From the NCBI GenBank assembly GCA_964620965.1, contig CAZUHV010000002.1:184798-248797 (forward strand): a stretch of 64,000 bases of DNA, read 5' to 3'. The notes under the pieces are model-generated. The model had not been told where the DNA came from and searched no databases. It worked only from the letters and a program-made list of their open reading frames with translations. Shown here piece by piece: positions 4,004 to 57,348 of the stretch. The position numbers and the translations under genes are program-made. This DNA is from an uncultured Pseudomonadales bacterium (GTDB lineage: Bacteria; Patescibacteriota; Microgenomatia; UBA1400; PJMF01). The first letter of the stretch is position 1, and each line of letters opens with the position of its first letter.

Positions 4004-4543
4004 CTATTCGCTCTTTGGTTTTCCTTTAACTTTTGCTCTAATATCAAACTCCCATTGGTCTCCAGAACTTGTATCAAAGCTCTTTGAGTTTGTCATAGAA
4101 TAGTAGTTAACTAAATGATTACTCAAAGTTTCTTCTATTTCTTTTTTCTCTTGGTTAATCTCTGAAATTTGTGCTTTGAGGGATGTTGCCTGAGAACTGT
4201 TTGCAATTGCAGATCTTCTTTCTTTAACCTGTTGTTGCATCACTTCTACTTGGTCACTCACTTCTTGCAACGCTGAATCATTCTCAAAAACACTTTTAAG
4301 TGATTCACGCTTTTCTCTGAGCATGTTTTTAACACGCTCAAGTTCGTTTGCATTTCTTTCAATCAAGTTTTGTAATGACATTAGAGTATCAGCTAAATCA
4401 TCTGAAGCTTTAACCTCATCGAAATCATCTTTATTTTTACCCTCTGCTTGAGAAAGAGCAGAAAGTGCCAAATCCTCACCAGATTCTAAAACTTCTTGTT
4501 CGTCACCTGCTTCTAACTTTTGAGTTGTGTCTGTATCCGACAT
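4004..4543 (-). CDS. acidic coiled-coil hypothetical protein
   Basis: Internal ATG (MSDTDTTQKLEAGDEQ...) preceded by aaaggaag. Highly acidic, heptad-like sequence with no recognisable catalytic motif. Confidence 0.45.
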   Translation of the reverse strand: MSDTDTTQKLEAGDEQEVLESGEDLALSALSQAEGKNKDDFDEVKASDDLADTLMSLQNLIERNANELERVKNMLREKRESLKSVFENDSALQEVSDQVEVMQQQVKERRSAIANSSQATSLKAQISEINQEKKEIEETLSNHLVNYYSMTNSKSFDTSSGDQWEFDIRAKVKGKPKSE

Positions 4544-4706
4544 ACTTCCTTTCCAAATATATTCATTTGCTATAACACATAACACTCTAAAGCATTCTCA
4601 AAAAATACTCAAGTGCAACTAAGATAGCCTAGATCCTATCTGTAAAAAGTAGTATAATTAGGGTCTTGAAAATAAATTAATAAGTACAGATTTTTTAGAA
4701 AAAAAT

Positions 4707-6131
4707 ATGAAAAAATCCACAAAGATCGTCGCAACAATTGGTCCAGCTACCGAAACTGAAGAAGTCATTAAAGACTTGATAAACGCAGGCATGAACGTTG
4801 CTCGTTTCAACACAAAGCACGGTACCCCAGAATGGCACCAAGTTAGAATGAGAAGAGTAAAAAAAATTGCAGAAGAAATGGGAGTAGCCGTTGGGATTCT
4901 CTTAGATCTTCAAGGACCAGAAATTAGAATTACACTCCCAACTGACGAATCATTTGCTGTTAAACCAGGTGACAGAGTTACTTTTACTTCTGATGAAAAA
5001 AATAAATCACCTAAAACCCCTTATATCCCACAGATTGTTGTTGATACGCTTGAAGTTGGACACCAAATTTCTATAGATGACGGAATTGGCCAATTCGAAG
5101 TTATTGAAAAACATGCAGATCATATTATTTGTTCTGCACAAGGAAACTTTGATGTTAAACAAAGAAAAACACTCAATACTCCAGGAATTCTTATTGATCT
5201 TCCTTCACTTATTCCTGCGGACTTAGTTCAACTGGATGGAGCAGATAATACTTTAGTAGACTTTGTAGGACTCTCTTTTGTAAGAAATGCGCAAGATATT
5301 GCTATCTTAAGAAAAGAACTAGAAAATAGAAAGCTTGAAGCTGCAATCTGTGCAAAGATTGAAAATCAAGCAGCTATCGAAAATCTTGAAGAAATTCTTG
5401 ATAATAGTGATGCTGTGATGGTTGCAAGAGGCGACTTAGCTGTTGAAGTGCCTTTCGAAGAGCTCACACATTGGCAAAAAGTTTTAATTGCAAAAGCAAG
5501 AGAAAAAGCAATTCCTGTTATCACTGCAACTCAGATGCTTAAATCTATGGTTGATAATCCAGTTCCAACAAGAGCAGAGGTTTCTGATGTCGCAAATGCG
5601 ATTTACGATGGAACAGATGCTATCATGCTTTCTGAAGAAACAACTATTGGTAAATTCCCAGTAAAAGCAGTTGCAACACAAGCAAAAATTGCTTCATTTA
5701 ATGAACAGTATGCAAAACCAAATCCAATTAAGACAAATGACGTGGACGAAAGTGCATATATAACACACGCAGCTGTCTCACTTTTAGAAATCTCAAGACT
5801 AACAACAAATAAAATTAATATTGATAAAATTGTTTGTTTAACAGAAACAGGACAAACCGCACGAAATATTTCTAGATTTAGACCGCATATCCCAGTACAT
5901 GCACTTACAAGTAATCAACAAACATACAGAAAAATGAGCTTACTTTATGATGTAACACCACACATCATTAAACTGCCACAAGGTGATAATTTAGAAAGCT
6001 CAGAAAAGCTGTTAAACACACTTGTCGATGTTGGAATTGCAAAATCTGGTGAGAATATCTTATTAGTTCATGGAACCTTCTGGAAAAAACCTGGACTCAC
6101 CAACACCTTGTCAATCCTACAAATTCCCTAG
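4707..6131 (+). CDS. pyk: pyruvate kinase
   Basis: MKKSTKIVATIGPATETEEVIKDLINAGMNVARFN plus a full-length PK barrel and C-terminal domain. Confidence 0.9.
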   Translation: MKKSTKIVATIGPATETEEVIKDLINAGMNVARFNTKHGTPEWHQVRMRRVKKIAEEMGVAVGILLDLQGPEIRITLPTDESFAVKPGDRVTFTSDEKNKSPKTPYIPQIVVDTLEVGHQISIDDGIGQFEVIEKHADHIICSAQGNFDVKQRKTLNTPGILIDLPSLIPADLVQLDGADNTLVDFVGLSFVRNAQDIAILRKELENRKLEAAICAKIENQAAIENLEEILDNSDAVMVARGDLAVEVPFEELTHWQKVLIAKAREKAIPVITATQMLKSMVDNPVPTRAEVSDVANAIYDGTDAIMLSEETTIGKFPVKAVATQAKIASFNEQYAKPNPIKTNDVDESAYITHAAVSLLEISRLTTNKINIDKIVCLTETGQTARNISRFRPHIPVHALTSNQQTYRKMSLLYDVTPHIIKLPQGDNLESSEKLLNTLVDVGIAKSGENILLVHGTFWKKPGLTNTLSILQIP

Positions 6132-6453: not shown

Positions 6454-7812
6454 CTATTTCTTGTTTTTATACCAGTTATTTATTTTTTCATCTATTGATC
6501 CGTCATAAAACGGTTTTAGGTATTCTGTTTGAGTTTGTGGTGTCAAAATGTACCACAAACTTCTTTTTGCAACCAAAATTCTGGGAATCAACAAAACACA
6601 AATAGATACAAGCATACAAAAAATAAACAGTTTTTTTTGCCATTTTTTTTGTAAAAAATATCTCGTTATTATATATACTCCCAATACTAAAAAAGAAATA
6701 AATCCTGATATTGCATAACGCGTTGAAGTTGGTGGAAGAAACCACCAAATAAGCCATTGCCATACAGAAAAAAACAATAAAGCTTGGAGTCTAATGTCTA
6801 ATAGAATATTTTTTACTTTTAGTAGTAAAAAAGGAAAAAACAGTACTAAGGGAGGAAAAACATAATCTCTTGCAAATACAAATTCTCTAAGAGATGTATG
6901 CAAAGAAAAAGTCCGTTCAAATAAAAAAGAAACAAAATCTCTTTCTCCTCCAATTTGCTCTAATTTTCCAAGATGCAGAGTTAAGGAATAAAAAGGGTTT
7001 CCAGTAAAAAAATATGTAAACAAATAGTAGGGTAGTGGTAAACAAAACAAAAGTAAACTATAGTACCAAAACTTATTTGAAAAGAATTTTGCATAAAAGA
7101 AAAAGAGTATTATAGGAATCAATGCTATAGAAAACAGCTTCGTTGCCAAACTTGCGGAAAAGAATAAAAGAGCATATATCGAATATCTGTGATTTTTCTC
7201 TTGAAAAAAGTGTAACAAAAAATACAACCCAGCTACTTCAAAAAATGCTTTCGCAAGATCAACATAGAAACTCGCCGATTGCCAAGAGATTACCTGAAAA
7301 ACTGAAATGGAAATAGTGGCTAATAAGGCCCAGTATCTATTCAGAAATAACCTTGAGAGCTTAAATGAAAAGAGGCTCAAAAAAAATCCAAATATGTATG
7401 CGACTATTTTTGCCCCAAACATTCCAAAAAATACAAAACCAGAGAAAAAGTAGAGATCTGCAAATAGGGGATTTGCAGTTTGATATAAGTTAGAATCATA
7501 TACAATTTTATGAGATTCTAAAATAAGTTTTGCAACAGGCAAGTGATACCACAAAGCATCAAAACCAGTTTCCGGAACCAGTACCTGCAAAAAATGTAAA
7601 AACCAAACAACTATAAATAGGTAACTCAACCAAAGCTCACCCCTTGAGAGCAATGGTAGTTTTAAAAAATAAGCTTTGACGATTATAAAAAAAATCACAC
7701 AAATACTTAAAAAAATACTCACCAAAACTGGTTTGAATAATAAACCTAAGAAACCAAAAACTGTTGTTATAATTCCTAGTACCAAAAAGTAGAATATAGC
7801 TCTATCTTCCAT
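6454..7812 (-). CDS. polytopic membrane protein, GT-C-like glycosyltransferase candidate
   Basis: Many TM helices. The first loop contains PETGFDALWYHLPVAKLI, an acidic E/D motif. The track ORF (start 7944) reads through tRNA-Arg, so the start was reset to internal Met codons MKMEDRAIF (7818/7812). Confidence 0.5.
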   Translation of the reverse strand: MEDRAIFYFLVLGIITTVFGFLGLLFKPVLVSIFLSICVIFFIIVKAYFLKLPLLSRGELWLSYLFIVVWFLHFLQVLVPETGFDALWYHLPVAKLILESHKIVYDSNLYQTANPLFADLYFFSGFVFFGMFGAKIVAYIFGFFLSLFSFKLSRLFLNRYWALLATISISVFQVISWQSASFYVDLAKAFFEVAGLYFLLHFFQEKNHRYSIYALLFFSASLATKLFSIALIPIILFFFYAKFFSNKFWYYSLLLFCLPLPYYLFTYFFTGNPFYSLTLHLGKLEQIGGERDFVSFLFERTFSLHTSLREFVFARDYVFPPLVLFFPFLLLKVKNILLDIRLQALLFFSVWQWLIWWFLPPTSTRYAISGFISFLVLGVYIITRYFLQKKWQKKLFIFCMLVSICVLLIPRILVAKRSLWYILTPQTQTEYLKPFYDGSIDEKINNWYKNKK

Positions 7813-7880
7813 TTTCATGTGAAGTGGATTGTACCATTTATGTTTATGGGTTATAATATACGTCTTAACAATAAGTTTAT

Positions 7881-7954
7881 GCGCCCATAGCTCAGCCGGA
7901 TAGAGCGACTGCCTTCTAAGCAGTAGGTCGTGTGTTCGAGTCACACTGGGCGTA
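7881..7954 (+). tRNA. tRNA-Arg (anticodon TCT)
   Basis: Cloverleaf traced by hand. Acceptor GCGCCCA/TGGGCGT, anticodon loop CTTCTAA, TTCGAGT T-loop. No encoded CCA. Confidence 0.85.
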
Positions 7955-7976
7955 CGTATGTTAAAATAGCGTTAGT

Positions 7977-8051
7977 GGTGGCTGTAGCTCAGTTGGTTAG
8001 AGCGTCGGGTTGTGGTCCCGAAGGTCGCCGGTTCGAACCCGGTTAGCCACC
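7977..8051 (+). tRNA. tRNA-His (anticodon GTG) with encoded G-1
   Basis: An extra 5' G precedes the acceptor GTGGCTG. Anticodon loop TTGTGGT, discriminator C. Confidence 0.85.
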
Positions 8052-8178
8052 CATCCTTTTAACCTGAAACAAGATACCCTGACTGATAATTACAAGTATT
8101 CTTCCTCTTTAAATTGGTGGATTTTTAACTTAATTTTCAGAACCAAGAAAAGGAATATTTTAATATGATGTATGTAAT

Positions 8179-9006
8179 ATGAAAATACTAGTTATAGGTG
8201 ATATACACATTGGTGATTCTAGAGAATCCACAACTCATCCGGGTATCGTTAGACAAGCAAACACACAATCGGAAAAAACTCTAAAAGATTTAATTCCAAA
8301 ACTTAATAATTTTGGTTTTGATCTAGTTGTTCATACAGGTGATGCATTAAGGGACACATACAAAAAAGAAGTTGATGAGGAAAACCTCACCAAAACACTC
8401 ACCCTATTAAGTGAACTAAAAGTGCCAACAGTTCATCTAATTGGCAATCATGAACTTAGGGCCTTCTCAAGAAATGAAGTTGAAAACATTTATAGAAAAG
8501 CAAAAGTAGATCCTATATTCTATGGCATGCAAGAATACTCCGATTTTCGCATAGTATGGTTAGATATTGAGTTGGACAGTAAAGATAAAGCATATTTACC
8601 AAAAAACACACTCAAATGGCTTGACACGCTACCCAAAGATAACAAGCCATCAATCATTTTTTCTCATTACTCATTAATACCGATAGATGAAAAAGGCACT
8701 TTTTACTTTGAGAAACAACCAGAAACCATGCACCTAGAAAATGCTACTGATGTTCGAACAGCTCTCGCCCATATAAACCCACTGATTCATATTAACGGCC
8801 ATGTGCATTTACTTACCCACCAACAAGAAAACAAAACCCACTATATTTCAGCTCCGTCTTTTTCTGAAAACATTGCGGGCGGAACTCACTTAGACAATAA
8901 TCCAGGTATCTATTCAGTTTTAGAAATAAAGAATACTACTTTTGTTTTTTCTACTTACAGCGATCAATTTACATTTGCGAAAATTCAAGGAAAACTAGAA
9001 AAATAA
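8179..9006 (+). CDS. metallophosphoesterase (calcineurin-like)
   Basis: VIGDIHIGD ... HTGDALRD ... IGNHE ... GHVH motifs. Confidence 0.8.
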   Translation: MKILVIGDIHIGDSRESTTHPGIVRQANTQSEKTLKDLIPKLNNFGFDLVVHTGDALRDTYKKEVDEENLTKTLTLLSELKVPTVHLIGNHELRAFSRNEVENIYRKAKVDPIFYGMQEYSDFRIVWLDIELDSKDKAYLPKNTLKWLDTLPKDNKPSIIFSHYSLIPIDEKGTFYFEKQPETMHLENATDVRTALAHINPLIHINGHVHLLTHQQENKTHYISAPSFSENIAGGTHLDNNPGIYSVLEIKNTTFVFSTYSDQFTFAKIQGKLEK

Positions 9007-9016
9007 GGAAGAAAAT

Positions 9017-9367
9017 ATGCCATTAAAGTTTCAAATTAAACACATTTCACAAATTCCGTTCGAAGGAACCCATGCATTACCAAATGCTAGGCAGACACTT
9101 GCGACAAAAGATGATGTTGTTACTGACAACATTGATGCACTCACCAAAGGTGTTTTACCACCCGGAAAAGTTTGGGATTGGCATAAGCACGAAGAATATG
9201 ATGAGCTTTGCATCGTATTGAAAGGTGAAGGGAAGTTCTTTTGGGAGGATGAAGTCGTTGACTACAAACCAGAAGATGTGATTATTATTCCTGCTAACAG
9301 CACACATAAAATTGAAGCACTTGGCGATGTTAATAATGAGTTTTATTTTGTAAGAATCAAAATTTAA
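9017..9367 (+). CDS. cupin-domain protein
   Basis: WHKHEEYDELCIVLKGEG ... IIIPANSTHKIEALGD fits the two His-containing cupin motifs. Confidence 0.55.
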   Translation: MPLKFQIKHISQIPFEGTHALPNARQTLATKDDVVTDNIDALTKGVLPPGKVWDWHKHEEYDELCIVLKGEGKFFWEDEVVDYKPEDVIIIPANSTHKIEALGDVNNEFYFVRIKI

Positions 9368-9403
9368 CATCAACTAGTAATAGTATTGATTGCAACTATC
9401 TCA

Positions 9404-9440
9404 CCCAGTCTCAACCTTACCTGCACCACATCATCAAAAG
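9404..9440. repeat. left direct repeat flanking the toxin-antitoxin cassette
   Basis: agtctcaaccttacctGCACCACATCATCAAAag. The 16 nt core is identical to the copy at 10101..10146. Confidence 0.7.
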
Positions 9441-9504
9441 AATCAGTAAAACTCGGATCAATAGTTGATAAACTGTAGTTTATAGCCTACAATACAATTG
9501 TATC

Positions 9505-9795
9505 ATGGAAATCCTAAAAACAGACAGCTTCGATAAGTGGTTAAAGAAATTAAAGGATAAAAAAGCTAAAGCAATTATCCAAGTAAGCATCAACCGCTTG
9601 ATCGAAGAAAATATAGGAAAAACAAGATCTCTAGGAGAAGGAATTCACGAAAAGAAGATTAATTATGGACCTGGATACAGACTATATTTTATAAACCACA
9701 ACCAAAGCATAATAGTTTTGCTTTGTGGAGGAGATAAATCAACCCAACAAAGTGATATTAAACAAGCGAAAATCATAGCTAAAGAAGTAAATTAA
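9505..9795 (+). CDS. type II toxin, addiction-module killer protein (Gp49/HigB-like, RelE/ParE superfamily)
   Basis: TDSFDKWLKKLKDKKAKAIIQVSINRL ... GEGIHEKKINYGPGYRLYF ... IVLLCGGDKSTQQSDIKQAK matches the COG3657/PF05973 pattern. Confidence 0.8.
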   Translation: MEILKTDSFDKWLKKLKDKKAKAIIQVSINRLIEENIGKTRSLGEGIHEKKINYGPGYRLYFINHNQSIIVLLCGGDKSTQQSDIKQAKIIAKEVN

Positions 9796-9817
9796 ATATA
9801 GAAATGAAAGGAAAAAT

Positions 9818-10090
9818 ATGAAAATCACAAAATACAACGCAACCGATTATCTAAAAACAGAAGCAGACATCAAAGAATATCTCAACGCTTCCTTTGAAAC
9901 AGGAGATAGTAAACTTATCGCTAGAGCACTTGGTGATGTTGCAAAAATAAAAGGTATGACTAAAATTGCCAAAGCTACAAAACTTGATAGAAGTAGCTTG
10001 TATAACTCTCTTACCACTGAAGGTGATCCCAAACTAAGCACTCTAACCAAACTGATTGAGAGCTTCGGTTATACTTTTTCAATTAAGTAA
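9818..10090 (+). CDS. type II antitoxin, HTH addiction-module antidote protein (COG3636-like)
   Basis: DYLKTEADIKEYLNASFETGDSKLIARALGDVAKIKGMTKIAKATKLDRSSLYNSLTTEGDPKLSTLTKLIESFGY. Lies 22 nt after the toxin with its own RBS. Confidence 0.8.
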   Translation: MKITKYNATDYLKTEADIKEYLNASFETGDSKLIARALGDVAKIKGMTKIAKATKLDRSSLYNSLTTEGDPKLSTLTKLIESFGYTFSIK

Positions 10091-10100
10091 GTTAATTTCA

Positions 10101-10146
10101 CTTAGTCTTAACCTAATCAAACCCACCCGCACCACATCATCAAAGG
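10101..10146. repeat. right direct repeat flanking the toxin-antitoxin cassette
   Basis: agtcttaacctaatcaaacccacccGCACCACATCATCAAAgg. Confidence 0.7.
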
Positions 10147-10254
10147 CTGATAGAATACGATCAATTGACCGAGTTACAACTAAACTTGTATTTCTGGGTA
10201 TTGGACCCCAATATATACTTCCCAAAAAAAATTTCTTCTGAGTATAATAGTTCG

Positions 10255-11733
10255 ATGACCTTAGATTCCTCTACATTTATATTGTTTTACTTCATAGTAC
10301 TCCTGTTTTATTGGAGCGTTTTTTCTCGTTGGAAAAAAATATTTCTTTTAGCAATAAGTTTATTTTTTTATTTTTCTCTCAGTCCAAAATTTGGCTTAAC
10401 TATCTTTTGGTCTGCAGGAGTTACATATATATTCAGTTTACTTTTTGATGCATTTAAAAAGAAAAAAAATAATTTACAATTCAAAATAATTTTTTTAGGT
10501 ATAATCATTATTTTAGGAACTCTTGTCTTTTTTAAATACCTAAACTATTGGGATGAACTACTAAAAAATATATTACCTCAAATAAAATTTAGCAGTTATG
10601 TTCTCCCCATTGGGATTTCATTCTATACCTTTCAACTTATTGGATATCTTATAGACATCATCAAAAAAAAATACCCAATAGAAAAAAATCCAATCAACTT
10701 TTTACTCTTCATACTGTTCTTCCCAAAACTGCTCGCCGGACCAATTGAAAGGGGGAATACCTTACTTTTCCAAATTCAAAAAAAACAAAGATGGAATACC
10801 ATAAAATTTATTAGTGGACTCAAATTGTTTGTGTTAGGTTTGTTTAAGAAAAAAGTGCTTGCAGATAACCTTGCTATTATTGTCAACAGAATGTTTGACC
10901 ATCTTCCAGAATATAAAGGTCTCAGTCTAATCCTCCTTATGTTCATGTACTCTTGGCAAATATACACAGATTTTAGCGGGTATACTGACATGGCCAGAGG
11001 AATTGCTCGTACATTTGGGTTTGAACTATTAGAAAATTTTAACGCTCCGTATATCTCAAAATCTATTCGAGATTTTTGGAGAAAGTGGCATATTTCTTTA
11101 TCAAGTTGGCTACGTGACTATCTCTATTTCCCATTGGGCGGGAGCAGAAAAGGATTATTGTTTACTATATTAAACACAGTAATTGTTTTTATAATTTGTG
11201 GAATTTGGCATGGAGCAACTCTCAATTTTGTTATTTGGGGAGCAACGCATGGACTAATAATTGCATTTGAAAGAGTATTAATTGTCTTTTTTACACCAAA
11301 AAAATTTTACAAAATATTTTTAGAATCTGTCGAAAAAAACTCTCTTTTAAAAACAATGAGCTCTTTCATACAGATAAGTTACTCATTTGGTATCGTAACA
11401 GCAACTTGGGTTATTTTTAGAGCAACGACTTTATCTGATGCACTATATATTTACAAAAATGCATTTGTTGGACTCAAAAACTTTATCAATCCTACATATG
11501 TTAAAGCAACAATTGAACTGGTATTCCAGCATAACACTTTTGAAATTATAATTACAACTTTACTGATTTCTTCTGCAATCATCTTAGAAATACTCAGCTC
11601 AAAACAACAATTCAATGTATACCTTCAAAAAATGCCAACTACCTTAAGGTATAGTATTTATATATTTGTTATCGTAGCAATTTTATTATTTAGACAGCCT
11701 GAAACTGCTAACTTTATTTATGTCACCTTTTAA
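10255..11733 (+). CDS. MBOAT-family membrane O-acyltransferase (DltB/AlgI-like)
   Basis: Classic motif FWRKWHISLSSWLRDYLYFPLGGSRKG. N-terminus MTLDSSTFILFYFIVLL is typical of MBOAT. The track start at 10165 was trimmed to the ATG at 10255. Confidence 0.85.
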   Translation: MTLDSSTFILFYFIVLLFYWSVFSRWKKIFLLAISLFFYFSLSPKFGLTIFWSAGVTYIFSLLFDAFKKKKNNLQFKIIFLGIIIILGTLVFFKYLNYWDELLKNILPQIKFSSYVLPIGISFYTFQLIGYLIDIIKKKYPIEKNPINFLLFILFFPKLLAGPIERGNTLLFQIQKKQRWNTIKFISGLKLFVLGLFKKKVLADNLAIIVNRMFDHLPEYKGLSLILLMFMYSWQIYTDFSGYTDMARGIARTFGFELLENFNAPYISKSIRDFWRKWHISLSSWLRDYLYFPLGGSRKGLLFTILNTVIVFIICGIWHGATLNFVIWGATHGLIIAFERVLIVFFTPKKFYKIFLESVEKNSLLKTMSSFIQISYSFGIVTATWVIFRATTLSDALYIYKNAFVGLKNFINPTYVKATIELVFQHNTFEIIITTLLISSAIILEILSSKQQFNVYLQKMPTTLRYSIYIFVIVAILLFRQPETANFIYVTF

Positions 11734-12871
11734 AAAATCAACACTCATACTTGTCTTTAAAGCTTTAGTGATCATTTTTGTTTCTTTAGTTTTTACCTTA
11801 TTTATCGAACTGTATTACTTGAAATACTCAAACAACACCTATGAAACTTCTCAAAATATTTTCCCCAAAAAAGCAATCGAACAAAAATATGAAATTGTGG
11901 CATTAGGAAACTCACATACAGAGAATGGAATCACGTTCGAAAAATATAATTTGAAAGGACTCAACTTAGGATCTGTTGCGCAAAGATTTAACTATGACCT
12001 AGCAATGTTAAAGCATCACAAAAATGAAATTGCGCCAAATGCAATTATCCTTATTAATGCTTCTCCTATTTCTTTTTCACATTCAAAAGACTTTGAACAA
12101 AAAAGTTTTCAAAAAATATACTACAAAAAAATGAGCCCTCTTTTTATTCCAAATTTAGTAGTTGGAGAATACATTGAAGCGGTACTTGTACCTTTTACAA
12201 ATTCTGGATATCACTGGAGAAAATGGATTCAAGATCAAATAACAGAACAAAAATCTTTGGAAGAGTTCAACCAATTTCAAGAGCTTAGCCAAAAAAATGA
12301 ACCTCAAAAAGTCGCAGAAGAAAAGCCAGAGATTCCAAAAGTAACAACAAACAATCAAGTAAAAGAACTTGAGATAGACCCAGAAACACTTTCACCATTC
12401 TATATTCCACTCATAGAAGAAAAACTTGCCTCACCATCAGCAAAACCTGAAGATCTTGCCGGAAGCGTAAATTTTATGAAAAATAAATGGCTGCATACAA
12501 ATGAATTCAGCCAAGAATATTTCGAAGAAAATATACAAGACTTAGAAAACATAATCACATACTCTTTAAAAAACAACTGGCGCCCGATAATTATTACAAT
12601 TCCAATATCCGAAGAACTGCAAAAATCTTTAACAAGTGAGTACATGCAAACCTATTTATATAATAATATTAATAAAACAAATCTTCAGGGAGTAGAGTAC
12701 TTAGACTTCACACAAAATACTGCACTCACAAGAAGAACATTTTGGTTTTCAAATTCTGACCACTTCAATAAGGAAGGGTCTGCTGCATTTAGCTATGTAT
12801 TATTAAAAACATTAATTGAAAAAAAATATTTACCAGAAAATACTAACAATTATATTCAAGAAAAAAAATAA
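11720..12871 (+). CDS. MBOAT-associated membrane-anchored protein (DltD/AlgJ-like partner, putative)
   Basis: Overlaps the MBOAT stop by 14 nt, suggesting translational coupling. Has an N-terminal TM anchor and a soluble domain of about 350 aa, like DltD. No catalytic motif was verified. Confidence 0.35.
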   Translation: MSPFKKSTLILVFKALVIIFVSLVFTLFIELYYLKYSNNTYETSQNIFPKKAIEQKYEIVALGNSHTENGITFEKYNLKGLNLGSVAQRFNYDLAMLKHHKNEIAPNAIILINASPISFSHSKDFEQKSFQKIYYKKMSPLFIPNLVVGEYIEAVLVPFTNSGYHWRKWIQDQITEQKSLEEFNQFQELSQKNEPQKVAEEKPEIPKVTTNNQVKELEIDPETLSPFYIPLIEEKLASPSAKPEDLAGSVNFMKNKWLHTNEFSQEYFEENIQDLENIITYSLKNNWRPIIITIPISEELQKSLTSEYMQTYLYNNINKTNLQGVEYLDFTQNTALTRRTFWFSNSDHFNKEGSAAFSYVLLKTLIEKKYLPENTNNYIQEKK

Positions 12872-50073: not shown

Positions 50074-51411
50074 ATGAGAGTAAACACAACAGAACAACTA
50101 TTTCCAAATGAGACAATCTACAAACAACCTGTAGAAATTTCTGATGCTCTACTTTCTGCAGTCGACACATTGCCAACCGAAAAACTAGGTGCAACACCAG
50201 CAGAGCAAGAGGCTTCAAAAACTACAATTAAAAACTGGGTTACTACACTTTGGTATGGCATTGAGTTTGTTCTACAAAGACAAAACCTACAACAAACAGA
50301 TCGTGAACAATTTAAATCTCAAATAGCAAGCGATCTATTAAAATTCATTACCCACAAAGATCACGGCATCCTACACTCATATTTCGTATACAAAGGGATA
50401 CTTCACTTAGCAGTAAAAAATAATAATCCCATCACACCAGGATCAACAGAAGATAAACAAGCACAGCTTATGGCTTTACTGCACGATATTGCTCAAACAG
50501 TTACTTTTGCCTTAGACAATACTAAATTTAAAACACGCTACTCTCATCAAAAAAATGACCATGCTCAAATTATTGGAGATCTTGGTAGAATTTTTGGAAG
50601 AAGTTTAGGATTTAATAGAACTCAAATGCTAGAACTTACATTTGGCTTAACACATCACGATGATAGCTACTACAATATTTACCACCACGAAACCTTTAAT
50701 AGAATGTCTAAGCTCCTCCATGACTCTGACAAAATTTTTGGAACTTCGCTGTCTACAGACATTTCTGAACTTACAATTGGGATGCTTGAAAGAAACTACC
50801 AAGCAAATAGAGGCGAAAATGGAAGTTATGTGTTTAGAGAAGAAATTCCTAAAAGCACACGCAATCTCATTATGTATGGAGATAGATGTATGAGTGATGC
50901 AATTTCTCTAGTTAGAAAAGAATTCAACATAGAAATGTACACACAAGCCGGCCAAGAAATCGCAGAGCAAAGAAGGCAAATAGCACTTAATAGTGCACAA
51001 AAAGTATATGGAAAATTCTTCGACCTCACCAATAATTTCATTTCACAGCACATTCTAGAATACATACAAGGCAATAGACCAAATATGAAACTGACAATTG
51101 TTGGTATGGAACAAGAAGAGTCAGAACTTCCTCAGCCAATATCTACAATATCAGATTTCACTGAAGAAGTTGAAAGACTCTACCAAACCCCAATTCGCCT
51201 CCAAAACGAACATAAATTTTTAGATAGGTATGGAGAAAACCATGCAAGAGGCCTAAAAATCCACGTAGTTGATAATACACAAAGTTTTGGAGATCAAACT
51301 AGCATCGACCTGTACCTTGACCCAAGTATTGCTCGATACTGTTTAAAGCAAAACGGAAGAGAAGAGTTTTTAGAAAAAGTAAACCTTGCCTTCCAAAACG
51401 GCGTCCATTAA
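50074..51411 (+). CDS. HD-domain-like phosphohydrolase with C-terminal extension (hypothetical)
   Basis: His/Asp pattern H...LLHDIAQ...HHDD...HHE...LLHDSDKI matches the HD-superfamily metal-ligand order. Confidence 0.4.
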   Translation: MRVNTTEQLFPNETIYKQPVEISDALLSAVDTLPTEKLGATPAEQEASKTTIKNWVTTLWYGIEFVLQRQNLQQTDREQFKSQIASDLLKFITHKDHGILHSYFVYKGILHLAVKNNNPITPGSTEDKQAQLMALLHDIAQTVTFALDNTKFKTRYSHQKNDHAQIIGDLGRIFGRSLGFNRTQMLELTFGLTHHDDSYYNIYHHETFNRMSKLLHDSDKIFGTSLSTDISELTIGMLERNYQANRGENGSYVFREEIPKSTRNLIMYGDRCMSDAISLVRKEFNIEMYTQAGQEIAEQRRQIALNSAQKVYGKFFDLTNNFISQHILEYIQGNRPNMKLTIVGMEQEESELPQPISTISDFTEEVERLYQTPIRLQNEHKFLDRYGENHARGLKIHVVDNTQSFGDQTSIDLYLDPSIARYCLKQNGREEFLEKVNLAFQNGVH

Positions 51412-53781: not shown

Positions 53782-54204
53782 ATGAAAACATTTGTAGAAG
53801 TTGCTCCTGGAAGTACAACCCCAAGTGGACTACTGCTCCCCGAAAGATCAAAGCCTGTAAAAATGCAGGTAGAAATAGCGTATCAAACCGAAAAACTCTG
53901 GCAAGGAAGCTTGTCATTCAATAGACCACAAAACGTTGAAAAAAGAGTACCAAGAAAAGTGAAATATAGAGCCGAGCTCGTTTTTCTTATTACAAAATTT
54001 CTTGATTTTCATAAAATGGATACAAGAACAAATTCTAGTTTAACCATGTTAGTACAAACAGGGGATGAATACATCTTACTTAATGTGGGAAAAACCGCAA
54101 AAAAAAATGAGTTATTTTGCCAAGTAACATACAATATTTCTGAAGCAACTATCCAAAGGCTTAAACAAGAAAATAAGGTATATCCAAACTGTGACTTACC
54201 TTAA
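53782..54204 (+). CDS. hypothetical protein (140 aa)
   Basis: ATG-initiated ORF, no family recognised. Confidence 0.3.
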   Translation: MKTFVEVAPGSTTPSGLLLPERSKPVKMQVEIAYQTEKLWQGSLSFNRPQNVEKRVPRKVKYRAELVFLITKFLDFHKMDTRTNSSLTMLVQTGDEYILLNVGKTAKKNELFCQVTYNISEATIQRLKQENKVYPNCDLP

Positions 54205-55233
54205 ACCAGCCGTTTCTTTTGTATCTTTTTGTGTAACTTTCTCTAAACCACTTCTTAAAGCATAAAACTGAGCTGTTGGTTTATCATTTTCGTCAAAAAA
54301 ACTAAATCCTGCAAACGGACCAGGAGCTCCTTTTAAAACAAATGGAGTAACAGCTAGAACTTTTTCATCAGACCAAATATGTTGCATAGCATACGAATAG
54401 TACGAACTGAGCCATTTGTTCAAGTATGGACTTGCATCCCAGCCAGTTTCCGTAATCATCACCTGAAAATCTTTTCCTGTCTTTTGTTTTAAATAATTGA
54501 GTTCATATTGATACCCACGCAACGAATTTTTTGCATAGCGAGTAGGAGAGCTAGAAAATCCAGGATTTGGATAAGAATGTGAGTTCCAAACATCAACTAC
54601 TTCAAAAATTTCAGGATCTGCAACCAACATTTGATTTAAGTATGTAAAAGCCTCTCTTGTTTGAAACCCGTTTGGAGCAGCTAAATCTAAACCTGCTGGT
54701 AGAACAATAAAATTTTGTTGTTCTGTATGAGCCCAATCAGCTGCAAACCGTAATGTCTTTGCATATTCTTCTGGGTTAATCGAAGCTCCCCATTCTTTTG
54801 CATGGTTAACCTCATTAAACACAATTATGTATTTTTCTTCTGTTGGCCAGTTCAGTTTAGACAAAAACTCTATTTGCTCAACAATGTTCTTTTTGTTTGG
54901 TATTTCCCAAGCTCCAAGATCTGAATTAAATTTCGTTGTTAAGCGAACAATTGGTATTAACTTTTGGTCTCTACAGACATCGAAAAAATTTTGCCAATCT
55001 TGGGCATTCTCTAAATCAGAAAGTGTGAGAGGAATAGTGATGTAGTTCCAGGTTTCGTTTGAATCTTGTAAACTTACAACCTGTTTTGCTTGAGTTGCTT
55101 CATCAATACTTAAGATATGAACACCAAGTTTACTTGCCTCAAAAGCAAAAATATCATTAGAAAAAAAGATGCTTGCAACAAACAAAAGTGTCGAAATAGC
55201 TAGTGTGTTAAAGATATATCTAAACATAATCAC
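54196..55233 (-). CDS. secreted clan GH-A glycoside hydrolase (GH5-like TIM barrel)
   Basis: Signal/anchor helix. FNEVNHAKEWG (NEx acid/base) and MITETGW (nucleophile Glu) are the two catalytic signatures of clan GH-A. Confidence 0.6.
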   Translation of the reverse strand: MIMFRYIFNTLAISTLLFVASIFFSNDIFAFEASKLGVHILSIDEATQAKQVVSLQDSNETWNYITIPLTLSDLENAQDWQNFFDVCRDQKLIPIVRLTTKFNSDLGAWEIPNKKNIVEQIEFLSKLNWPTEEKYIIVFNEVNHAKEWGASINPEEYAKTLRFAADWAHTEQQNFIVLPAGLDLAAPNGFQTREAFTYLNQMLVADPEIFEVVDVWNSHSYPNPGFSSSPTRYAKNSLRGYQYELNYLKQKTGKDFQVMITETGWDASPYLNKWLSSYYSYAMQHIWSDEKVLAVTPFVLKGAPGPFAGFSFFDENDKPTAQFYALRSGLEKVTQKDTKETAGLR

Positions 55234-55312
55234 TCAATTATTATAGGATAACATGTTCTAGATGAAATGTCAATTAAAACTTGAGTTTGCTATACTACGT
55301 AAGTTATACATT

Positions 55313-56065
55313 ATGAAGTCTTTATTTTTTGCATTCTCTTGGCTATTCCTTTCTGTAGGTATTGCATTTGTAAGTATTGCTTCTGTTTCATTTTATAAAA
55401 TTGGAGACTTTAACTTCCTGAATAAAACTATTAAAGAAAACCAAGTGTTAATTACGAACGGATCTCAAGAAAATAATCAAGCAATTTTAGGATCAACAAC
55501 CATTGTTGAAACGGATGATGCTAGAGCATTGTTAGTTGCTAATTTTCTTAAACGATACAACACTCCAAAACCTCAGGGTGGGGGAAACCTCAATCACCCT
55601 CTTGTCCCAGAAGAATACTTTGGAAAATTCTTTGTAGAACTTGCAGATACATATAATTTAGATTTTCGACTCCTTCCAGCTATCGCAATGCAAGAAAGCA
55701 ACTTGTGCAATCACACCCCAAAACCAAATAATGCAGCGGGAGTTCCTGTAGAATCATATAACTGTTTAGGATTTGGAGTATATGGCACAAAAGTTACAAT
55801 GTTTCCAAGTTTTGAAGCAAACTTTGAACAGGCAGCAAAAACGCTCAAAAAAAATTACATTGATATCGGATTAGATACTCCATATAAAATCATGAAAAAG
55901 TATACCCCTCCAAGTGACGGAAGTTGGGCAGAATCAGTAAATCAATGGATGGCAGAAATGCGTTATGACGATAGAAAATCTGGAATTCAATTAAAAGAAG
56001 ATGCTGATTTGCTTGAATTTACAGATAGTACGAAAGAAGCAGAAGCTTCGGCTTCGGCAAATTAG
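55313..56065 (+). CDS. membrane-anchored lysozyme-like (transglycosylase/glucosaminidase-like) protein
   Basis: N-terminal TM helix. LLPAIAMQESNLC resembles the SLT/lysozyme-like catalytic Glu motif. Confidence 0.45.
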   Translation: MKSLFFAFSWLFLSVGIAFVSIASVSFYKIGDFNFLNKTIKENQVLITNGSQENNQAILGSTTIVETDDARALLVANFLKRYNTPKPQGGGNLNHPLVPEEYFGKFFVELADTYNLDFRLLPAIAMQESNLCNHTPKPNNAAGVPVESYNCLGFGVYGTKVTMFPSFEANFEQAAKTLKKNYIDIGLDTPYKIMKKYTPPSDGSWAESVNQWMAEMRYDDRKSGIQLKEDADLLEFTDSTKEAEASASAN

Positions 56066-56811: not shown

Positions 56812-57348
56812 ATGATTCAAGCTGCCCAACCAAACGAGCTCCATAATCCAGATGCACCAAAAGAAGATGTTATTTTAAAAGTGCCTGGATTTAGCACCCC
56901 CGTAAATCAATTCAATAAACCACAGAACACAGCAACTGAACTTCCAAAAATTCCTCTATCTCAAAAAGAATCTCCAGAATGGGTGAAACAGTTTTTCCAC
57001 TGGTGGCATAAAATTGCGATGGTTTTATTAATTGGACACGGTTTACTTGGACTTTGGGAATCAATTTACTTTATGGCATTTGAATATACAGAACTGAACG
57101 AGTTACTTTCAGTACACCAAATTGATGTTATCGAAGTCAACGGTTTAATTAGTAGAGCAATTATTACTGTCATTACAACTTTTGTGAATATTTTATTTGC
57201 GATTAGACTCTCAAAAGTAAAAGAAACAACAGCACATAATGTTGACCTCATTGTTGCTACATTTTTAATTATTAGTACTAAACTAATTCAAGATTTATTG
57301 GTACAGTTAGATCTATTAAATTTATTTTTTACTCTAACTGCTAGATGA
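56812..57348 (+). CDS. hypothetical membrane protein
   Basis: Three or four TM helices, no motif recognised. Confidence 0.35.
   Translation: MIQAAQPNELHNPDAPKEDVILKVPGFSTPVNQFNKPQNTATELPKIPLSQKESPEWVKQFFHWWHKIAMVLLIGHGLLGLWESIYFMAFEYTELNELLSVHQIDVIEVNGLISRAIITVITTFVNILFAIRLSKVKETTAHNVDLIVATFLIISTKLIQDLLVQLDLLNLFFTLTAR

Follow-up and report, generated by a model that had tools for sequence, protein, structure and literature searches.

A toxin-antitoxin pair between two copies of a ~126-bp cassette-end repeat in a putative integrase-less array at the tRNA-His gene of a Roizmanbacteria-like bacterium

Arrays in which small genes of one orientation alternate with repeats are well established from the Vibrio cholerae repeats (VCRs) of Vibrio integrons, where the toxin-antitoxin (TA) cassettes of the superintegrons stabilise the array. 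A cluster of attC sites lacking an integrase (CALIN) still needs attC. Integration is also known at the 3' ends of tRNA genes, as in genomic islands and cis-mobilizable elements (CIMEs), and at dif, where integrative mobile elements exploiting Xer (IMEX) depend on a host enzyme; some IMEX bring a small accessory protein (XafT of TLC-phi). Here we describe a locus in a 64,000-nt stretch of contig CAZUHV010000002.1 (the window, within which all positions are numbered unless another locus is named), in which a TA pair lies between two direct repeats. We propose that positions 8053–10210 would form a short integrase-less cassette array on the 3' (CCA) end of a tRNA-His gene, with the TA pair as one of its cassettes, in a Roizmanbacteria-like bacterium of the candidate phyla radiation (CPR). 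The names attached to homologues of the cupin and of the toxin encoded here are those of Candidatus Roizmanbacteria and of the Patescibacteria group (CPR).

The first-pass annotation had described the TA pair as a recently inserted or target-duplicating cassette bracketed by ~40-nt direct repeats. That direct repeats surround the pair is borne out by their 16-nt core, GCACCACATCATCAAA, which occurs at exactly two sites (9423–9438 and 10129–10144, both on the plus strand) and nowhere else in the window; at up to two mismatches 0.05 matches are expected in the window, and at least three matches were obtained in 0 of 100 shuffles. The ungapped repeat comprises 28 nt with 86% identity (9411–9438 versus 10117–10144), and gapped similarity spans from AGTCTYAACCT to GATCAAT. 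The length of ~40 nt did not hold. Repeat copies were called by aligning the profile of a repeat family to the window with nhmmer; the left copy (9399–9465) aligns to profile positions 2–74 (E 5e-5) and the right copy (10095–10208) to positions 1–126 (E 1e-27), giving ~67 nt for the left copy and ~116 nt for the right copy of a 126-nt family. By alignment, the repeats are two copies, one of them truncated, of a ~126-bp element (the block) that ends each small cassette in tRNA-His arrays. The right copy has an in-frame 12-nt deletion and ends in TGGGTATTGGACCCCA, and the left copy has an additional 9-nt internal deletion; each holds the core.

Across family positions 1–74 the left and right copies are 61–63% identical, and each is closer to copies elsewhere. 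They are paralogues and not the halves of one duplicated target site. The block is GC-rich, as had been noted of the core (0.41, window mean 0.33), and the toxin (0.32) and antitoxin (0.35) genes are at background GC and therefore carry no mark of recent foreign DNA, which leaves the recency of the proposed insertion without a compositional sign. Two independent Logan assemblies of the organism show this structure, which is therefore not an assembly artefact. The features of the locus are as follows.

7881–7955: tRNA-Arg(TCT), just upstream of tRNA-His
7978–8052, plus strand: tRNA-His (GTG), head of the array (ARAGORN; Rfam 65 bits)
8053–9398, plus strand: cassette 1, with a ~126-nt leader (8053–8178), a Metallophos gene (8179–9006), a cupin gene (9017–9367) and a spacer (Pfam)
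9399–9465, plus strand: left repeat, truncated terminal block of cassette 1, family positions ~1–74 of 126 (nhmmer and alignment)
9465–9493, plus strand: promoter-like site of the TA pair, TTGATA-17 nt-TACAAT, of putative function (promoter scan, 10/12 matches)
9505–9795, plus strand: toxin, HI1419-type of the RelE/ParE family (HigB/Gp49-like), 96 aa (TIGR02683)
9818–10090, plus strand: antitoxin, HI1420-type (HigA-like helix-turn-helix), 90 aa (PF21716, TIGR02684)
10079–10225, minus strand: micro-open reading frame (micro-ORF) of the block, 48 aa, core GPIPRNTSL..SIDRILSAFDDVVRVGLIRLRLSEI (ORF list)
10095–10210, plus strand: right repeat, full terminal block of the TA cassette, family positions 1–126 (nhmmer, 19-copy alignment)
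10255–12871, plus strand: MBOAT gene (10255–11733) and the gene of a 383-aa partner, downstream of the last block (Pfam)

The order is thus tRNA-His, cassette 1 (Metallophos, cupin and block), cassette 2 (TA promoter, toxin, antitoxin and block) and the MBOAT operon, and the placement of the TA pair between the cupin and MBOAT genes in the first-pass annotation is upheld by Pfam.

In terms of distribution, a profile search of the fetched loci (designated L) found seven copies of the block in 9 kb of L110 (GCA_002305195.1), five in L087/L111 (GCA_964515115.1) and more in L096–L098, L101–L106, L107–L109 and L112/L116/L117, all oriented as the neighbouring genes, and no match in 930 kb of unrelated control loci. 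The full block measures ~126 nt in an alignment of 19 copies, and in many copies the 30 nt at its 3' end hardly vary; a scan of IMG/VR with the 3' segment of the block gave no matches, and Rfam returned only noise on 9300–10300. Between the blocks lie one to three small genes. The cargo seen comprises TehB with Metallophos, GNAT with NUDIX, a 2-hydroxyacid dehydrogenase, HD with a deaminase and YecM, glyoxalase, ANT, APH, Metallophos with cupin, the TA pair and AbiE. The units are uniformly 0.6–1.9 kb long and have leaders of ~45–125 nt, some with promoter-like sites; a cassette would consist of a short leader (often with its own promoter), one to three genes and a ~126-bp block ending in ...TGGGTATTGGACCC(C)A. 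The repeat is accordingly an intergenic element that follows many unrelated cassettes, and not the product of a duplicated target or a footprint specific to TA loci. The counts in L110 and L087 go part of the way towards the common intergenic motif, unrelated to TA loci, that the first-pass annotation had named as the finding that would speak against it.

Two kinds of sequence recur at the start of cassettes. A second conserved module of ~45 nt, A(T)CCTTTTAACCTGAAACAAGATACCCTnACTGAGAATTA, stands past the junction in many of them, and another type of leader contains the perfect hairpin AAAGCGGAACTCTGGTTCCGG (examples of leaders are at 8053–8100 of the window, at 2972–3015 of L087, and at ~1400–1445 and 3960–4003 of L100). 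Candidate roles for these modules are those of a tRNA trailer or terminator, of a cassette promoter and of the right half of the recombination site. The TA/abortive-infection pair AbiEi/AbiEii recurs as a cassette (L083 1484–1872, L096 5951–6792 and L101 4881–5722), with an AbiEii gene that seems fragmented in L083 (67 aa) and a leader, ATTGATTTATCAA, that follows a block in L083 and tRNA-His in L101.

The upstream end of the array is occupied by a tRNA-His gene, in the same orientation, in eight loci from different assemblies: the window, L087, L098, L101–L106, L107, L110, L113 and L120. The last of these is from the Pacebacteria assembly GCA_014728635.1, and its tRNA-His, which is cut by the contig end, was read by eye. 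In the window the 3' end of the tRNA (...GCCACCC/A at 8049–8053, with the slash marking the border) forms the head of the cassette array, its point of attachment, and the tRNA-His gene stands intact directly before the first cassette, as is the case when insertion at the 3' end leaves the tRNA intact. Three cassettes are found both after the tRNA and after a block. The Metallophos-cupin cassette, with its ~126-nt leader, stands after tRNA-His in the window but after a block in L087, and the identity between the two loci begins exactly past ...CCACCCA and ...GGACCCA, respectively (ACCCA/TCCTTTT onward). The glyoxalase cassette adjoins tRNA-His in L110 and a block end in L111, and a cassette of EamA and a TA pair likewise comes after tRNA-His in L113 but after a block in L112. 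In the three pairs homology sets in immediately past ACCC(C)A/G. The ANT and NUDIX cassettes that in L087 separate Metallophos from the tRNA are absent from the window, which has a clean ACCCA junction in their place. At the other end of a unit, unrelated sequence starts immediately past the GGACCC of the glyoxalase cassette and its block in two genomes. The borders of the cassettes are precise and portable.

The end of tRNA-His and the end of the block have in common only the segment ACCC(C)A (~5–6 nt), which is too short for homologous recombination. So short a common segment argues for site-specific and not homologous recombination, and we consider it likely that these arrays, in architecture and mechanism together, represent integrase-less cassettes inserted at the CCA end of tRNA-His by site-specific recombination. 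Cassettes would be gained and lost through a crossover inside the ACCC(C)A segment common to the tRNA-His end and the block ends, catalysed by a recombinase presumably encoded elsewhere in the genome. The tRNA end would take the part of attI in an integron or attB of an island, and the block that of attC or attP. In L120 the cassette also follows the tRNA-His end (CTACCACCCA), despite a block end of GGGAATCAC. A locus at a different tRNA was seen in the closed Roizmanbacteria genome CP066689.1 (L091, 3453–4351), in which a 143-aa gene and a cupin homologue stand directly after tRNA-Ser(CGA), with no detectable block and with a convergent DinB gene downstream; it may be a related islet at another tRNA.

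The block also bears a signal of another kind. On the strand opposite to the cassette genes it contains the micro-ORF, with a conserved stretch of ~42 aa, whose frame has stops in 0 of 19 copies and the lowest pN/pS (ratio of nonsynonymous to synonymous polymorphism) of the six frames, 0.39. Its Leu and Arg codons change family while the residue is kept (TTG AGG CTC, CTA AGG TTG and CTG CGA TTA for L-R-L). The peptide core, GPIPRNTSLDLDSVIxxSIERILSAFDDAVQVGLVRLRLxEI, belongs to a family of 28 clusters, and a wider set of 65 representatives, with the core LPSPEIIxxSIxKILxAFDDxVQVELxKxRWEEIKxLQ, extends down to ~40% identity. The homologues are 31–141 aa long in all of the 28 and nearly all of the 65, and a full-length parent protein was discounted on these lengths. 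A remnant of the DinB gene that follows the cupin in CP066689.1 was likewise rejected (BLASTP E=15, no Pfam match). The AlphaFold2 model of the peptide is one long helix (pLDDT 86), for which Foldseek found no matches in the PDB, a single helix being uninformative in such a search, and a scan of JGI metagenomes with the micro-ORF profile yielded three short contigs only. The left repeat retains, on the minus strand, an orphaned 3' part of the micro-ORF (..FDDVVQVRLRLGEIVAINTITS and stop). On the plus strand an ORF at 10056–10241 is open in 18 of 19 copies and shares wobble positions with the micro-ORF; it was rejected as the coding frame on account of its non-conservative changes (LNLT / LSFT / RRST) and its pN/pS of 0.55 versus 0.39.

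These observations allow the blocks to be read primarily as copies of a small gene for a ~45-aa helical microprotein, with the arrays arising by homologous recombination or gene conversion between the copies. Flexible genes would then be exchanged between conserved paralogous anchors, with no dedicated site-specific recombinase. The open frame, the low pN/pS, the codon-family switches and a protein family conserved to ~40% identity are all as such a gene would have them; an ATG or TTG often lies exactly at the block edge, and the near-invariant 3' 30 nt suggest homogenisation. However, homologous recombination cannot explain how the tRNA-His end replaces the block end with so short a segment in common. 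The frame has no conserved stop, its tail reading into the neighbouring gene, at the block edge the frame opens with ATG, TTG or TGG, several copies having only TGG and no start there, and conservation ends abruptly at ACCC(C)A. We regard this explanation as improbable, yet the best of the alternatives to site-specific cassette insertion. 

It is possible, though we hold it tentatively, that CPR bacteria (Microgenomates: Roizmanbacteria- and Pacebacteria-like) have a gene-capture platform of their own, comparable to integrons but distinct in mechanism. Cassettes of one to three genes and no integrase would insert at the CCA end of tRNA-His by way of a double-stranded ~126-bp site, with a working microprotein encoded on its antisense strand and a recombinase encoded elsewhere in the genome. 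The microprotein might then act as a recombination accessory or directionality factor, or as a stabiliser of each cassette, with its mRNA antisense to the cassette transcript; a role of the micro-ORF in recombination is entirely conjectural.

Comparison with relatives assigns the two repeats to different cassettes. The junction between the antitoxin stop and the block is kept in the window, L096 and L101, which are unrelated contexts, and also in L087, which assigns the right copy to the TA cassette. The left copy and its upstream spacer are orthologous to the intact block that follows the cupin gene in L083 and therefore belong to the cupin cassette. The TA pair would accordingly be one cassette with its own promoter and operator and with the right repeat as its block, and the left repeat would be the block of the preceding Metallophos-cupin cassette. 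In L083 (with L084–L086) the cupin is 96% identical and is followed, directly past its stop, by one uninterrupted repeat, the left part of which matches the left flank and left copy of the window and the right part the sequence to the right of the right copy. No HI1419/HI1420 pair follows the cupin in L083, and the genes downstream are different. L083 is thus a partial answer to the empty site that the first-pass annotation had called for: it has one intact repeat and no TA pair, but different downstream genes. L087/L111 have the same cupin-TA arrangement with a 99% identical toxin and both repeats, followed by glyoxalase instead of MBOAT, and the TA pair with its downstream repeat also occurs in the other gene contexts of L096 and L101. 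What stands of the earlier description is a mobile or accessory, exchangeable TA unit (L083, L096 and L101), whereas the nature assigned to the repeats gives way to that of cassette-end blocks.

A recent insertion of the TA pair between cupin and MBOAT, with ~40 nt of target duplicated or with attL and attR specific to the TA pair, can on this evidence be set aside almost entirely. It would suit the exact, non-random core and a relative that lacks the pair and has one copy. It is at odds with a 126-nt family that follows many non-TA cassettes in copies not adjoining TA genes, with the divergence of the two copies from each other and their greater nearness to copies elsewhere, with the orthology of the left copy to the cupin cassette's own block in L083, with the different downstream genes (MBOAT versus glyoxalase) in genomes that have the same TA pair, and with the lack of any compositional anomaly.

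Under site-specific cassette insertion the truncation of the left copy has to be accounted for separately. The final ~52 nt of the cupin block are missing, and what is left of it adjoins the TA promoter TTGATA-17-TACAAT; the same truncated cupin block is found in L087 at 4318–4399. The simplest account would be one ancestral deletion in which the end of the block and the leader of the TA cassette were lost, so that the cupin and TA cassettes became fused. In L098 (6038–6129) a second truncated block (positions 1–38; 6092–6129) precedes a complete block, from which it is separated by ~55 nt of unrelated sequence, and looks like the scar of a lost cassette. With a truncated block in L098 as well, internal deletions do therefore occur in the arrays.

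The TA pair itself is ordinary. By its family matches it is a complete HI1419/HI1420 type II module, HigBA-like and of the RelE/ParE superfamily, a standard module carried as one cassette. The toxin, with 847 homologues, scores 119.9 bits against TIGR02683 (cutoff 62.85) over model positions 2–94 of 95, and the antitoxin 94 bits against TIGR02684 (cutoff 53.7) with an E-value of 5.9e-24 for PF21716. The HigB/Gp49-type assignment of the first-pass annotation thus stands on TIGR02683 and TIGR02684, both above their cutoffs, while Pfam Gp49 alone, at 21.8 bits, falls under its cutoff of 23.9. As in other HI1419/HI1420 pairs, the toxin gene comes first, the family matches are full-length and above cutoff, and a palindrome lies in the promoter. 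This palindrome, TGTAG-N8-CTACA (9474–9491), is inside the promoter-like site, and TTGAC-N5-TGTAG..CTACAAT is kept upstream of homologous TA pairs in L087, L088, L096 and L112, from which the palindrome is a probable TA operator. As TA cassettes do in chromosomal integrons, this one probably lends stability to the array.

The window copy differs in nothing essential from the known pairs and has a 5-nt insertion. Comparison of 9786–9820 with 4715–4745 of L087, in otherwise closely matching copies (99% identical), places it in the toxin gene (GTAAA-TTAAA-TATAG), where it creates an early TAA, shortens the toxin from 103 to 96 aa (the last seven residues are lost) and removes the ATGA overlap with the antitoxin start seen in L087. 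The gap between toxin and antitoxin genes is 22 nt in the window, and homologues have a 4-nt overlap.

The arrays are reminiscent of integrons, and we further considered a genuine integron or CALIN, in which the blocks would serve as attC sites and IntI would recombine them in folded single-stranded form. Small, co-oriented, promoter-poor genes between ~126-nt repeats, with cassette functions (TA included) typical of sedentary chromosomal integrons, would be in keeping with this. A conserved hairpin of the block was not found, however: the RNAalifold consensus has 10 pairs at -1.77 kcal/mol, DNA folds of three copies on both strands were no better than shuffles (z +0.82 to -1.07), and no R''/R' pair (RYYYAAC/GTTRRRY) was seen in the block sequence. 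The block, having no conserved secondary structure, is therefore not attC. The antisense coding signal, the lack of an adjacent integrase and a head that is a tRNA gene and not attI beside intI also speak against a genuine integron, which we judge most unlikely. A tandem accretion of decayed tRNA-targeting islands, with each unit left over from a larger integrative element that had lost its integrase and the block as a degenerate attR or duplicated tRNA 3' end, has very little probability, in that units anchored at a tRNA 3' end and repeated downstream, and a loose resemblance of the last 16 nt of the block to the tRNA-His end (~9/16), are outweighed by a block that beyond ACCC(C)A is no copy of the tRNA (ARAGORN and Rfam called no partial tRNA in the blocks), by tiny units with no integrase remnants in ~25 cassettes, and by 126-nt conservation of a coding type far in excess of a core att site.

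Several observations weigh against integrase-less cassettes exchanged by site-specific recombination. No tyrosine or serine recombinase was identified by Pfam among the 47 window ORFs of at least 170 aa, nor any recombinase in the gene tables for 10 kb on either side of the arrays in L110 and L111, with no Phage_integrase match in either set, and no cognate integrase-bearing element with the same att site was found in the fetched loci or IMG/VR. No excised circle was seen. The L120 block (8001–8138) ends in GGGAATCAC and not in ACCCA or GGACCC(C)A, so that the crossover motif does not hold throughout, and lineages may differ in their junction motif. The leaders past the junction are partly alike between cassettes, and the exact crossover could therefore lie a few bases to either side. 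A truncated left copy is not expected from clean site-specific insertion and needs the extra deletion step, L083 is not a strict empty site, and a pure recombination site does not account for the antisense conservation of a protein-coding type in the block.

Seven of the window ORFs of at least 170 aa have no Pfam match (115–801, 1261–2826, 4004–4585, 50074–51411, 54196–55233, 55262–56065 and 56812–57348), and a novel recombinase could be among them. A 5'-end-supply model (like SXT at prfC) and an integrase partition of the SSV type were rejected, as there is no long gene at either end of any array.

Downstream of the last block, the MBOAT operon is either a last cassette without a block, none having been found after it by the family profile, or the chromosomal flank. 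The closest GTDB relatives of the MBOAT protein are 32–42% identical, and a GTDB genome scan gave no syntenic genomes. Around the head of the array two listed ORFs are affected by the tRNA genes. The first ~40 residues of the 496-aa ORF at 6454–7944 (minus strand), at its N terminus, together with all of the 52-aa ORF at 8010–8168 (plus strand), are artefacts of translation across tRNA-Arg and tRNA-His; the membrane protein probably begins near MKMEDRAIF. The window has 14 tRNA genes in 64 kb, with one cluster at 46.8–49.5 kb.

Contigs that end inside a block were observed in L085 (1392), L086 (1385) and L108 (2405–2434). The block repeats explain these assembly breaks, which fit a multi-copy repeat that breaks short-read assemblies, and the arrays are probably under-represented in metagenome-assembled genomes. 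CPR bacteria (Patescibacteria) have very small genomes, and their ways of acquiring and rearranging accessory genes are poorly understood; an array anchored at tRNA-His would be a sequence-defined hotspot of gene flux in them, carrying enzymes of resistance type along with defence and TA modules. As their site is not attC, such arrays escape integron finders, and the block profile together with tRNA-His offers a handle for mining cassettes in metagenomes. An antisense micro-ORF within a repeat that resembles a recombination site is unusual and could reveal a new small accessory protein. In a full-text literature search, of incomplete coverage, arrays of this kind were not found described for CPR bacteria.

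In terms of known systems, a looser analogy is with the IMEX (CTX-phi, TLC-phi and VGJ-phi at dif), which are likewise recombinase-free elements in tandem at one site and use a host enzyme; here the site is a tRNA end instead of dif, and the cargo consists of single genes instead of phage genomes. With tRNA islands and CIMEs the arrays share integration at a tRNA 3' end, tandem units between att-like repeats and an integrase that would come in trans. They differ from them in the size of the units (0.6–1.9 kb versus 5–100 kb, with up to seven in a row), in a repeat that is not a copy of the tRNA 3' end and has only ACCC(C)A in common with it (a typical att core is at least 15 nt), and in that no integrase-carrying parent element was found. 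With integrons and CALINs they share co-oriented cassettes of one to a few genes, each with a ~126-nt 3' repeat, and one fixed head site. As with the Vibrio VCRs, the repeats are alike within one array, and close strains differ in the cassettes that they carry; small enzymes (GNAT, NUDIX, glyoxalase and aminoglycoside-modifying) and TA cassettes with their own promoter are common to both. The co-oriented, strain-variable cassette array of an integron is present, whereas the attC hairpin, the R and L boxes and an adjacent IntI with attI are not; the head is instead the end of tRNA-His, the cassettes have leaders of ~45–125 nt, and the repeat encodes an antisense micro-ORF. Taken together, this family of repeats, with the arrays anchored at tRNA-His, appears to be a variant of cassette or islet capture not described before.

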